From sequence record OR896820.1: a stretch of DNA of 64,000 bases; one strand, given 5' to 3'. The notes under the pieces were generated by a model, which searched no databases, had not been told where the DNA came from, and worked only from the letters and a program-made list of their open reading frames with translations. The stretch comes from Escherchia phage Stokescottia. Below, in pieces: positions 26,246 through 37,583 of the stretch. A program made the position numbers and the translations under genes. Every line of letters begins with the position of its first letter. Position 1 is the first letter of the stretch.

Positions 26246-26599
26246 ATGTTTACAATATTATTATTTGTTATATTCTTCCTGAAACATTTTATGGCTGATT
26301 ATCCCCTCCAAACTCCATACATGTTAAGGAAGACTCACAAAATAGGATGGAAACTTCCATTACTAACCCATTCTCTAGTACATGCTGGACTAACCTTTAT
26401 AATTCTTACTATGTTCACATCACTAGGAATGGCTATAACTTTAGCTATAATGGAATTAATCCTACACTTTATCATAGATTACTGGAAAGCACAACGCTGT
26501 AAATACGATATAAGTGATTCCAAGTTTTGGATAGCTTTAGGATTTGATCAGTTACTCCATTACTTAACCTATGCTCTCATAATCTTGATTATAATTTAA
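26246..26599 (+). CDS. hypothetical membrane protein
   Basis: 117 aa with hydrophobic N- and C-terminal segments. Confidence 0.4.
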   Translation: MFTILLFVIFFLKHFMADYPLQTPYMLRKTHKIGWKLPLLTHSLVHAGLTFIILTMFTSLGMAITLAIMELILHFIIDYWKAQRCKYDISDSKFWIALGFDQLLHYLTYALIILIII

Positions 26600-26605
26600 C
26601 TCAAA

Positions 26606-26630
26606 TAGCCCTTCGGGGCTATTATATTTA
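26606..26630 (+). terminator. terminator-like hairpin
   Basis: AGCCC TTCG GGGCT followed by a T-rich run. Confidence 0.5.
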
Positions 26631-26638
26631 AATTTCAT

Positions 26639-26667
26639 TTGCTTATTTAGTGAAATTTAAATATAAT
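26639..26667 (+). promoter_or_regulatory. early-type promoter
   Basis: TTGCTT, 17-nt spacer, TATAAT, then TTTATAAATTGGAGG box. Confidence 0.55.
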
Positions 26668-26692
26668 ATATTTTATAAATTGGAGGTATATA

Positions 26693-26974
26693 ATGATTTC
26701 AGCCAAAGAAGCTCAAGAACTCGCAGGATTAACAGAAGTACCCGCATTTCTAAAGTTTATAGAAGAAAAGATTGTAGAAGCTGCTAAGTCTGGAAATACA
26801 GAAGTAATTATTCGAGATAATCCTTACGCTAGGTGGCTATATAATCCTAGAGAAATGCCAGGAGCAGCTAAATCAGTACTAAAAACCTTATCGGATAAGG
26901 GGTATCATCTCTCACAATACTACCGAGAAGCCGCCTTTGTAGACATGGGTCTTAAAATTAGTTGGGAGGTATAA
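26693..26974 (+). CDS. hypothetical protein
   Basis: 93-aa ORF after promoter and SD. Confidence 0.45.
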   Translation: MISAKEAQELAGLTEVPAFLKFIEEKIVEAAKSGNTEVIIRDNPYARWLYNPREMPGAAKSVLKTLSDKGYHLSQYYREAAFVDMGLKISWEV

Positions 26975-27470: not shown

Positions 27471-27499
27471 TTGCTTAAAGCCCTCTAATTTAGTATAAT
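27471..27499 (+). promoter_or_regulatory. early-type promoter
   Basis: TTGCTT, 17-nt spacer, TATAAT. Confidence 0.55.
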
Positions 27500-27526
27500 A
27501 TTCATATTGAAAGTGAGGAGGGCTTT

Positions 27527-27811
27527 ATGCGGATTTATAACTCAAATTCATTAGGATTTAAACCATTGAGAAAACGTGCACAATCACCTCGTCAAATAAG
27601 AAAGGCTAATATTGGTGAGCCAGAGACACGACTTCCACCTCCTCCAGAACAACGTTTAGTTTATCTGGACGAAGAATTAGCGGAATGCGAAAGAAAAGCT
27701 CAAGAAGAGATTGAGCGTAAGAAAATGTGTACTGCTCCAGCCTACTCCAAAGGGGCTTATCAGTATATCTATACAGCCGAGGAGGCTAAAGATGCGGGGC
27801 GTAAAAAATGA
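27527..27811 (+). CDS. hypothetical protein
   Basis: 94-aa ORF. Confidence 0.4.
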   Translation: MRIYNSNSLGFKPLRKRAQSPRQIRKANIGEPETRLPPPPEQRLVYLDEELAECERKAQEEIERKKMCTAPAYSKGAYQYIYTAEEAKDAGRKK

Positions 27812-28257
27812 AGATTACTGAATTTAAAGGTACTTATAGTTTCTTATCAAACTTTTATTTATCACCAATTACTTTCGAATATCTAAATGAAATATGGCAT
27901 GCTGATACTGTAGAACATGCTTTTCAGGCTATGAAATCCGACCAAAAAGATGATGTAGCTCATGTACTGCGCTCCCTAAATGCAGGAGTTGCCAAACGTA
28001 GAGGACGTAAATTAACTCTACGCTCTGACTGGGATAAGGTAAAAGATGATGTAATGCTAGAGCTTTTACGGTTAAAGTTTGCAATCCCTGATTTGAGAGA
28101 CAAACTGTTAGCAACAAAAAATGCAACTTTGATCGAAGGAAATACCTGGGGAGATACATATTGGGGTGTTTGCCGAGGCATTGGGGATAATACTCTAGGT
28201 GTTCTTTTGATGCAGGTAAGGTCTGAAATTAAAAGAAGCTTACAGTTAATAAATTAA
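27808..28257 (+). CDS. NADAR-domain protein (YbiA-like)
   Basis: 149 aa; FLSNFY...EHAFQAMK...W...DTYWG pattern typical of YbiA/NADAR. Confidence 0.75.
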   Translation: MKITEFKGTYSFLSNFYLSPITFEYLNEIWHADTVEHAFQAMKSDQKDDVAHVLRSLNAGVAKRRGRKLTLRSDWDKVKDDVMLELLRLKFAIPDLRDKLLATKNATLIEGNTWGDTYWGVCRGIGDNTLGVLLMQVRSEIKRSLQLIN

Positions 28258-28265
28258 AAATTCAT

Positions 28266-28294
28266 TTGCTAAACGCTTCAAATTCTCGTATAAT
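28266..28294 (+). promoter_or_regulatory. early-type promoter
   Basis: TTGCTA, 17-nt spacer, TATAAT, then CATAAATTGATAAAC box. Confidence 0.6.
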
Positions 28295-28332
28295 ATACTT
28301 CATAAATTGATAAACAAAAAGGAAAACAAATA

Positions 28333-28848
28333 ATGGCTAAGCAGAAAAACGCAAAAACTCAAGCAGCTCCGGCAGTTAAAACTTTCCCGCAGACCGAGGC
28401 TAATCGCAAAGATCGCCTGGAACGTCACCTGCGTAAGCATCCTACCGATACCCAGGCTGCGCAAGCACTGAATAATCCGGCTCCGATTCGTCAGAAGCCT
28501 AAAGCTAAAAATGCCACCCGTAAATCCTACAAAATGGTTATGTATGTAGAAAATTACGGCCACAAATCTGTCCCAGTTTCCCTGAGCTTTAACGCTGGGG
28601 CTGAATTGTTCTCTCGTAATGGTATGTCTATGAAAGACTATGAGAAGGCAGTTAACCAGAAGCGTAAACCAACAGCAGATGTATTGCGTGATACTCGTGG
28701 ACAGTTTGGTTCTGTTAAGCCAAATATCTTTGGCGTAGAGTATAGTAAAGATAATGTTCGTGCTCTGTGTTACGGTGTAGGCATTAAGTTCACGGGTGAT
28801 TCTGCTCGTAAATCTGCTAAACCAGCTCGTAAGCGTAAAGCGAAGTAA
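28333..28848 (+). CDS. hypothetical basic protein
   Basis: 171 aa, Lys/Arg-rich at both termini. Confidence 0.45.
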   Translation: MAKQKNAKTQAAPAVKTFPQTEANRKDRLERHLRKHPTDTQAAQALNNPAPIRQKPKAKNATRKSYKMVMYVENYGHKSVPVSLSFNAGAELFSRNGMSMKDYEKAVNQKRKPTADVLRDTRGQFGSVKPNIFGVEYSKDNVRALCYGVGIKFTGDSARKSAKPARKRKAK

Positions 28849-29419: not shown

Positions 29420-30121
29420 ATGAAAGTAAAACCATTTGGTATGCTAGATATTGAATCTCTAGGAACTCCAGGAGATTGTGGTACTACTCATATCGCAATG
29501 CCTTCTTTCGCTTTTGTGGCTATGCATGGAATTGATAAAGACCCTGATCTAGTATTTGTTACTTTGGATGTGCAAGATCAACTTAATTCTGGTGCCAAAG
29601 TCACAGCATCTACTCTAGCATTCTGGATGGATCAAGCTAAAAATAGTCCGTCTGCTATCCACATTATGGAAGCTATGAAGGAACGTAATCCAAAACTGAT
29701 TGCCTTCCAAAATGGTAAACATCATTGCACTAATAAATTAGGCTCAAACTATGCTGCCTTCTCTATGGCTCAAAATATTATGGAGTTGGCTCTAGGCGAA
29801 AATGCTTTGTATTATGGCAATGGCCCAGAGTTTGATATGACTATCTACTCTGCAAATACGTTCCATGCTGGAACCAATGAAGAGGTAGTTCCGTGGAAAT
29901 TCTGGAATTTGGGCAATGTTCGATCTCTTCGTAATCTCTGGATGCAAGCTGGATACAGTTATAAAGCTCTAGAGACCGAAGGTATTAGCTGGGCAATAGC
30001 TAAAATGGAGAAGATGGACACTATTCGTTATGGGATCTATCCAGTTAAGCACGACCCAGCATTCGATGCCTTAGTTGAGAGCTATTGTGTTGCAGCTATG
30101 ATCGAAAAAATGAAAATTTGA
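29420..30121 (+). CDS. putative DnaQ-like 3'-5' exonuclease (DEDDh)
   Basis: 233 aa; Exo I-like MLDIESLG and Exo III-like HDPAFDALV. Confidence 0.5.
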   Translation: MKVKPFGMLDIESLGTPGDCGTTHIAMPSFAFVAMHGIDKDPDLVFVTLDVQDQLNSGAKVTASTLAFWMDQAKNSPSAIHIMEAMKERNPKLIAFQNGKHHCTNKLGSNYAAFSMAQNIMELALGENALYYGNGPEFDMTIYSANTFHAGTNEEVVPWKFWNLGNVRSLRNLWMQAGYSYKALETEGISWAIAKMEKMDTIRYGIYPVKHDPAFDALVESYCVAAMIEKMKI

Positions 30122-33000: not shown

Positions 33001-33224
33001 ATATTCATAAATTAGGGAACAGCGAGCCGATTACGCTGAGTGCAGAATCCCAACCGGAGCGCATTGAATAGAGTCGGTGGGTTAGTTGTAAAACTAGTAC
33101 ACAGGGGGCGGCAATTCCGGTTAGTGGCTAGAACGTGTAAAATGAGGCGTCTGAAACCTCTCCCCTAAACTCTTCTCTAATTTATAAATAGTGGGGTGTG
33201 GAAATCACTTATGTAGTAACACTG

Positions 33225-33295
33225 CCGTCCTAGTATAATTGGTATTATCAAGCCGTAACTGGTGGAAGATGTAGGTTCGAATCCTACGGTCGGTA
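33225..33295 (+). ncRNA. degenerate tRNA-like element
   Basis: Canonical T-arm GTAGG TTCGAAT CCTAC but no canonical acceptor or anticodon stems. Confidence 0.25.
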
Positions 33296-37505: not shown

Positions 37506-37583
37506 GGTTCTCAAGCTCATATGGTATGAGCACCCGGCTCATAACCGGAAGGTACGTAGGTTCGAATCCTCGGGGAGCCACCA
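37506..37583 (+). tRNA. tRNA with CAT anticodon (Met or Ile2)
   Basis: Acceptor GGTTCTC/GGGAGCC, D-stem GCTC/GAGC, anticodon loop CTCATAA; T-stem imperfect. Confidence 0.55.

Follow-up and report, generated by a model that had tools for sequence, protein, structure and literature searches.

The gene studied here, which lies in the early region of a T5-like phage, represents one more copy of an anti-DarTG1 factor that has been published and functionally characterized; since the identical protein has been published under the name AdfN(Bas32), the gene is already known. The window, i.e., the whole stretch of 64,000 nucleotides of Escherichia phage Stokescottia (OR896820.1) analyzed, carries it on the plus strand, and its product is predicted to be a guanine-N2-ADP-ribose DNA glycohydrolase countering DarTG1. 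We consider it very likely (probability about 0.85) that this small stand-alone NADAR ADP-ribosyl-glycohydrolase is made early by the phage as an "orphan antitoxin" directed against the host DarTG1 system. The evidence obtained here on this gene consists of the identity of its product, the fold, the complete active site, the purifying selection, the accessory status and the early-type promoter context. The features of the locus are listed in Table 1.

Table 1. Features of the NADAR locus (positions in the window).
Feature	Position	Strand	Basis
Sigma-70 promoter of the two-gene unit: TTGCTT (27471-27476), 17-nt spacer, TATAAT (27494-27499)	27471..27499	+	Read from the sequence
94-aa ORF of unknown function, T5p088 ortholog (PHROG 4593)	27527..27811	+	90-98% identical to the T5, BF23, oldekolle and Bas32 orthologs
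444-bp segment present here and absent from T5	27799..28242	+	Single-long-gap pairwise alignment to T5
NADAR-domain protein, 149 aa = AdfN(Bas32/Bas33)	27808..28257	+	Pfam, identity to bas33_0070/bas32_0066, structure, active-site mapping, purifying selection, published function
Ortholog of the T5 early promoter P-H207 (TTGCTA, 17 nt, TATAAT)	28266..28294	+	Promoter scan; T5 "promoter P-H 207" at the homologous place
DUF7022 gene, driven by the P-H207 ortholog	28333..28848	+	Next gene after NADAR

Identification of the gene product

In the ORF listing, the gene is an ATG-started ORF of 149 codons with exactly the limits given in Table 1. Its product matches the Pfam NADAR profile PF08719 (the NADAR superfamily being that of PF08719, DUF1768 and COG3236) with an E-value of 6.3e-22 and a score of 79 bits, as compared with a gathering score of 35.1, and the match spans positions 9-163 of the 163 positions of the profile, which is essentially its full length. 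The initial annotation had proposed a NADAR domain protein at this place, to be confirmed with Pfam, and this proposal is borne out by the profile as well as by the fold and the active-site residues described below: the protein belongs to the NADAR superfamily on account of a full-length profile match above the gathering score, a NADAR fold and the Glu/Lys pair. There is a further match to PHROG 1017 (E = 8.4e-45), a family to which no function has been assigned. The G+C content of the gene (36.2%) is close to that of the window (39%). Two minus-strand ORFs located inside the gene (27929..28159 and 27960..28181) were rejected as spurious, the pattern of variation fitting the plus-strand frame.

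The names given to this gene in GenBank are inconsistent, and its identity as AdfN corrects a widespread mis-annotation ("swarming motility protein," "GTP cyclohydrolase II," and "N-glycosidase"); "DUF1768," "glycosylase," and "antitoxin-like enzyme" are also in use. A distant homolog from a Streptomyces phage is labeled "ADP-ribosyltransferase," and in some records of the 2-kb region, small early-region ORFs near the NADAR locus are labeled "tail length tape-measure protein" or "baseplate wedge subunit."

Identity with AdfN(Bas32) and published function

A NADAR protein named AdfN(Bas32) has been described from the BASEL phages Bas32 and Bas33, "Markadamsvirinae closely related to T5" (Johannesman et al., Nat Commun 2025; PMC11825919). 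The corresponding genes were mapped from the GenBank locus tags of both genomes. The protein encoded in the window is identical to bas33_0070 of Bas33 HildyBeyeler (QXV80081.1) at 149 of 149 residues, and to bas32_0066 of Bas32 IrisVonRoten (QXV80247.1) at 147 of 149 (99%). The length of the protein and the flanking promoters are the same as in these two phages, and so is the order of the genes, which runs from rnh through the T5p088 ortholog (94-aa ORF) and the NADAR gene to the DUF7022 gene (171-aa ORF). The gene differs from the Bas32 and Bas33 copies at 10-12 nucleotides, nearly all of these differences being synonymous, and the cargo carried between thyA and rnh differs from theirs. With a near-identical sequence in the same slot, the gene is an ortholog of the AdfN(Bas32)-type anti-DarTG1 factor of Markadamsvirinae. 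The NADAR proteins of Bas32 and Bas33 are called identical in PMC11825919; in GenBank, they are distinguished by residues 9 (A/T) and 104 (E/K), and the protein studied here carries the Bas33 version.

When expressed from a plasmid, AdfN(Bas32) neutralizes the toxicity of DarT1 in uninfected E. coli and allows the DarTG1-sensitive phages RB69, T5, and Bas25 to form plaques at full titer again on a host carrying DarTG1; against DarTG2, which modifies thymidine, it gives T5 no protection (PMC11825919). The role against host DNA ADP-ribosylating toxins, which was initially put forward as plausible, has therefore been demonstrated for this same protein by ectopic expression, in the form of a rescue from DarT1/DarTG1 (PMC11825919). 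As to the target, the proposal, which spoke of DarT in general, holds for the guanine-specific DarT1 and has to be narrowed accordingly, since the thymidine-specific DarT2 is not countered. The removal of ADP-ribose from DNA in vitro was measured only in the case of the T4 AdfN (PMC11825919), and neither a NADAR knockout in a native T5-like phage nor a DarTG1 phenotype of Bas32 and Bas33 themselves was found in the literature.

Structure and active site

The AlphaFold2 model of the protein, which was built from an alignment of 58 sequences, has a mean pLDDT of 97.8 and a pTM of 0.91. Foldseek gave two significant matches in the PDB: E. coli YbiA (2b3w; TM 0.81, 37% identity), which is the top structural match, and the NADAR protein of Phytophthora nicotianae in complex with ADP-ribose (8bau; TM 0.78). 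Judging from the model, the protein has the compact build of YbiA-type and stand-alone NADAR proteins and is structurally remote from DarG1, although it does the same job.

The active site was mapped on an alignment including the protein studied here, E. coli YbiA (MG1655), T4 gp30.3, a homolog from the Salmonella phage vB_SenS_UTK0009, and the 8bau fragment. Because this alignment recovers exactly the published Phytophthora numbering (E43, K75, R79, W89, R93, E125, D130, and W133) and also the published catalytic pair of T4 (E36/K43), the column assignments can be regarded as trustworthy. The residues found at the published ADP-ribose-binding and catalytic positions are E36, K43, K63, R67, W75, K79, E110, D116, and W119, and all of them are present. 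The published site residues are all either invariant or conservatively substituted across the 58 homologs of the family alignment: E36, K43, E110, D116, and W119 are invariant in 58 sequences out of 58, and position 63 is occupied by Lys in 57 and by Arg in the other one. A Glu and a Lys located seven residues apart are known to bind the distal ribose and the phosphates, as in the case of the pairs E43/K50 of Phytophthora, E88/K95 of the E. coli C7 NADAR protein and E36/K43 of T4 (PMC11543638, PMC11825919). The position corresponding to E125 of the Phytophthora protein is diagnostic of the subfamilies, since Glu is the residue found there in YbiA-type enzymes and in NADARs proper, the BC4488 type has Asp, and the phage NADARs of the T4 type have His (PMC11543638). 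E110 aligns with E125 of the Phytophthora protein and with E125 of YbiA, and the residue of T4 gp30.3 at this position is H123.

Lys63 (codon 27994-27996) aligns with K75 of the Phytophthora NADAR protein, which is equivalent to K115 of the E. coli C7 NADAR protein, a residue reported to be dispensable for catalysis in vitro and essential for DarT1 rescue in vivo (PMC11543638). In the same column, E. coli YbiA carries Ala75 and T4 gp30.3 carries Gln62. Both of these proteins have been reported to be active in vitro, and yet they give no DarT1 rescue on their own (for T4, see PMC11825919), whereas the Bas32-type protein does. The correlation over these three proteins suggests that Lys63 may be the single feature that allows stand-alone antitoxin action in vivo.

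The Glu-type active site (E110, corresponding to E125 of the Phytophthora NADAR protein) and the YbiA/NADAR-proper fold would also be in keeping with a broader-spectrum nucleic-acid de-ADP-ribosylase, the main natural targets of which would be ART toxins other than DarT1 (pierisin/ScARP-like or YarT-like toxins, cytidine-ADPr, or guanosine-ADPr in RNA), the rescue from DarT1 being just one facet of its activity; this possibility overlaps with the anti-DarTG1 function and does not exclude it. Cytidine-ADPr in DNA and RNA is a substrate of NADAR-proper and YbiA-type enzymes but not of DarG1 or the T4-type NADARs (PMC12945103), guanosine-ADPr is removed from RNA by all the NADARs tested (PMC11833690), and according to the authors of PMC11825919, other ADP-ribosylating defenses are perhaps countered. 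However, the sole phenotype demonstrated in the case of a Bas32-type protein is that directed against DarT1/DarTG1, and no enterobacterial anti-phage system producing C-ADPr was found in the literature on these enzymes. We consider it rather unlikely that other toxins are the main natural targets.

Comparison with other NADAR proteins

E. coli YbiA shows 40% identity to the protein studied here, and the initial description "YbiA-like" stands as far as this identity, the fold and the catalytic Glu (E110, which is the residue diagnostic of the YbiA type) are concerned. It does not extend to the YbiA family in the strict sense: the score obtained with TIGR02464, the equivalog-domain model for the riboflavin-intermediate N-glycosidase, is 66.8 bits (E = 2.6e-18), which is below the trusted cut-off of 73.7, and in the published phylogeny, AdfN(Bas32) does not fall within the clade of the housekeeping YbiA proteins and lies close to two archaeal NADARs (PMC11825919).

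These data bear on whether the gene might be an auxiliary metabolic gene encoding a housekeeping YbiA-type N-glycosidase, which would clear reactive intermediates of riboflavin biosynthesis. The identity level, the TIGR02464 score itself and the top structural match could be quoted in favor of such a function, along with the GenBank labels "N-glycosidase," "GTP cyclohydrolase II," and "ribA/ribD-fused"; the sub-cut-off score and the position outside the YbiA clade argue against it. The genomic context does so too, since the gene is neither fused to nor adjacent to riboflavin genes: neither a fusion or linkage to RibA/RibD nor a LexA-controlled dinG-ybiB neighborhood was detected at this locus, where the neighbors are rnh, the T5p088 ortholog and the DUF7022 gene, whereas the E. 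coli ybiA gene adjoins the LexA-regulated dinG gene and ybiB. In addition, YbiA (2b3w) is active on G-ADPr in vitro but gives no protection against DarT1 in vivo, whereas the identical Bas32-type protein does protect, and YbiA has Ala75 where Lys63 occurs here. Lastly, the sporadic presence of the gene among otherwise near-identical phages fits a counter-defense function better than a metabolic one. The riboflavin N-glycosidase function was therefore rejected and seems to us to be very unlikely.

The Phytophthora nicotianae protein (8bau), a "NADAR proper," is only 26-33% identical to the protein studied here, and this eukaryotic protein is the longer of the two (189 aa), carrying an insertion that follows the WG motif. 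DarG1 (E. coli C7; G. lovleyi, 8bat) does the same job as the Bas32-type protein, namely reversing the ADP-ribosylation of guanine by DarT1; the Bas32-type protein resembles DarG1 in that it neutralizes the toxin without any phage factors, and the two share the Lys residue equivalent to K115. The likeness does not extend to the operon or the structure: no ART domain was detected in the ten surrounding ORFs scanned, the NADAR gene being an orphan gene in a lytic phage, and the protein shows neither the fold extension of DarG1 nor a close similarity to the G. lovleyi and E. coli C7 NADARs.

The NADAR protein of T4, AdfN(T4) or gp30.3, belongs to the same superfamily, has the same E36/K43 pair (even the residue numbers are the same), and plays the same counter-defense role against DarTG1. 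It has His123 instead of Glu110 and Gln62 instead of Lys63, and contrary to the Bas32-type enzyme, it is unable to neutralize DarT1 outside infection or to rescue unrelated phages (PMC11825919). A close relationship between the two proteins was rejected in view of the His/Glu difference and of the fact that BLASTP detected no similarity with gp30.3 (E = 1.2). As far as can be judged from the sequences, the comparison points to the T4 and Bas32-type NADARs having been acquired independently.

In a scan of one genome per prokaryotic species, the nearest cellular relatives were found to be 44-54% identical and to be scattered among Mollicutes, Bryobacterales, Lachnospiraceae, Planctomycetota, Pseudomonadales, and other groups, and no clear donor lineage emerged. 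The archaeal origin suggested by the published tree was rejected, since the nearest relatives span many bacterial phyla and only one archaeal (Pacearchaeota) MAG occurs among the best 80 cellular matches. The chromosome of a Bryobacterales MAG (OZ241991.1) carries at least four separate, dispersed NADAR relatives with 48-50% identity, and several Pseudomonadales and Azotimanducaceae MAGs carry two or three copies each; the extra copies in these MAGs could be prophage, mobile-element or toxin-linked genes.

A phage-carried anti-phage or superinfection-exclusion system of the DS-32 or PDC-M42 kind, of which the NADAR gene would be a part, might be suspected from the weak matches with NF053876, "NADAR family anti-phage protein" (45 bits), and with the PADLOC model PDC-M42C (27.8 bits). 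These scores are far below the cut-offs (240 bits for NF053876, DS32_2) and are explained by the common NADAR domain; partner genes are absent, and the context is that of a strictly lytic T5-like phage. This assignment was rejected as highly improbable.

Organization of the locus

The window belongs to a T5-like phage of the Markadamsvirinae. The 2 kb around the NADAR gene are 97-99% identical to those of many Escherichia and Salmonella T5-like phages (Demerecviridae/Markadamsvirinae), and the window shows the content of the T5 early region (nrdD, phoH, nrdA/nrdB, dhfr, thyA, RNase H, cell-wall hydrolase, dNMP kinase, and metallophosphatase), together with over 20 tRNA genes clustered in one block. 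Because the lists obtained with Rfam and ARAGORN differ, this block is put at about 23 genes, some of which are atypical: the Rfam tRNA model matches at 33224-33295 and 37506-37580 (plus strand; 35.5 and 40.3 bits), where ARAGORN makes no call, and the tRNA-Ala (42504), tRNA-Ser (43248), and tRNA-His (43900) called by ARAGORN are missing from the Rfam list. Further downstream of the NADAR gene, the 233-aa ORF at 29420-30121 (plus strand) carries a Pfam Rv2179c-like 3'-5' exoribonuclease domain (33.8 bits, as against a cut-off of 27) and matches PHROG 255, "exonuclease" (E = 1e-52); the label "putative metallopeptidase/peptidase M14" given to this ORF in T5-family records is probably wrong.

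The NADAR gene is located among nrdA, nrdB, dhfr, thyA, and rnh in the T5-type early region, and the early-type promoter is conserved with T5. The promoter preceding the 94-aa ORF has an A-rich upstream element and an ATATT motif at 27498-27502; downstream of it come a strong Shine-Dalgarno sequence and the start codon (ATG) of the ORF. The discriminator of the known T5 early promoters contains ATATT (PMC7472727). T5, BF23, and Bas32 share the 91-bp promoter region at 99% identity, and their records label it a putative or early promoter; a generic consensus scan missed it, since TTGCTT matches TTGACA at only three positions out of six. The stop codon of the 94-aa ORF overlaps the start codon of the NADAR gene (ATGA), because of which the two genes are probably co-transcribed and perhaps translationally coupled. 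A specific functional link between NADAR and the 94-aa ORF, to which this overlap might point, was rejected, since the ORF is conserved whether or not a phage carries NADAR.

The ortholog of P-H207, which is an immediate-early promoter in T5 (PMC6127294), starts eight bases past the NADAR stop codon and forms the right border of the NADAR insert. Its sequence is identical in the window, Bas32, T5, BF23, and oldekolle. The scan of the locus for promoters and terminators yielded no terminator-like site between the NADAR gene and P-H207. The "early operon" of the initial annotation can reasonably be retained in the sense of a two-gene unit in the early region, the earliness of which is deduced from T5: by analogy with this phage, the NADAR gene would be expressed early.

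Distribution and selection

The NADAR gene alone, used as a megablast query, was identified in 95 phage records, all 96-99% identical and all with an intact ORF, and the surrounding locus was identified in 245 records (query from rnh to the DUF7022 gene) or 417 (slightly shifted 2-kb query), all three counts including duplicate GenBank and RefSeq copies. T5, BF23, oldekolle, Eps7, and TrudiGerster do not carry the gene. It is therefore an accessory gene: between the T5p088 ortholog and P-H207, a segment of 444 bp is cleanly either present or absent. The left flank of the segment (27700-27798) is 69.7% identical to T5, the divergence being concentrated in the last ~40 bp, which encode the C-terminal tail of the T5p088 ortholog; only the last ~12 codons of this ortholog differ between phages with and without NADAR. 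The right flank (28243-28345) is 95% identical to T5 and becomes identical from the upstream element of P-H207 onward.

The idea of a general accessory-gene hotspot at the junction between T5p088 and P-H207 was rejected, since just two states, "empty" and "NADAR," occur among the phages inspected; the variable cargo sits between thyA and rnh instead. In the window, this cargo (26246-26974, plus strand) consists of a DUF3307 membrane protein gene (26246..26599) and a 93-aa ORF (26693..26974). The thyA-rnh gap contains nothing in T5, no annotated gene in Bas32, only an ORF of the 93-aa type in Bas33, a hypothetical gene and an HNH endonuclease gene in BF23, and other small ORFs in Bas27 and Eps7.

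A second NADAR allele encoding a protein of 149 aa, which is 60% identical to that studied here, was observed in the Epseptimavirus Salmonella phage vB_SenS_UTK0009 (OQ359889, PJM41_0094; 2489-2938 of the retrieved locus). It is located between rnh and the T5p088 ortholog, one gene upstream of the position occupied in the window. As far as sequence comparison goes, this suggests that T5-like phages have gained NADAR genes at least twice in the same neighborhood of ~1 kb.

Among eight orthologs (those of the window, Bas32, Bas33, and five IMG/VR contigs), variation occurs at 33 nucleotide sites, including 23 third positions of codons, and at nine amino-acid positions, all of which lie outside the active site; the pairwise pN/pS values are mostly 0-0.2. 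The gene is under purifying selection. That it might be a decaying or neutral passenger without any current function, as might be concluded from the fact that most T5-like phages (T5 and BF23 among them) lack it, has a negligible probability, given the intact ORF and 96-99% nucleotide identity in all 95 carrying records, the overwhelmingly synonymous substitutions, the invariant active site, and the activity of the identical protein in vivo (PMC11825919).

Proposed role in infection

The anti-DarTG1 function could operate as follows. Once the host DarTG1 system has been triggered, the DarT1 toxin would ADP-ribosylate guanine (N2) in the phage DNA, and replication would be blocked; the NADAR enzyme would hydrolyze the bond between guanine and ADP-ribose, and the DNA thus restored would allow the phage to replicate. 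The thymidine-ADP-ribose formed by DarT2 would not be removed by the enzyme. Enzymatic de-ADP-ribosylation is the presumed mechanism of the rescue, and we infer that the NADAR gene is necessary for the DarTG1 resistance of the phage carrying it. T5, which lacks the gene, is DarTG1-sensitive (PMC11825919), which fits the phenotype predicted.

Implications

Nothing fundamental is added here to what was reported in the 2025 paper (PMC11825919). The additions are modest: the 444-bp indel is delimited exactly and placed in its promoter context, the active site is mapped in full, including Lys63, the structural matches are ranked (a YbiA-like build combined with the job of DarG1), and another NADAR allele is described from a neighboring position in an Epseptimavirus. 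T5-like phages carrying the NADAR gene should form plaques on E. coli and Salmonella strains bearing DarTG1, and T5, BF23, and other phages lacking NADAR should not form plaques on DarTG1 hosts. The fact that about 95 deposited genomes carry NADAR, out of 245-417 with the locus, is useful for choosing or engineering T5-like phages for therapy and biocontrol. It is possible, if doubtful, that the Bas32-type AdfN has a wider spectrum than the T4 AdfN, extending to C-ADPr, to G-ADPr in RNA and to other ADP-ribosylating defenses, with Lys63 perhaps as the determinant of stand-alone action; the two NADAR alleles, which occupy adjacent positions between rnh and T5p087 in different T5-like phages, would then be the mark of repeated selection for this activity. 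If this is true, a wider range of substrates would protect T5-like phages from ADP-ribosylating defenses other than DarTG1.
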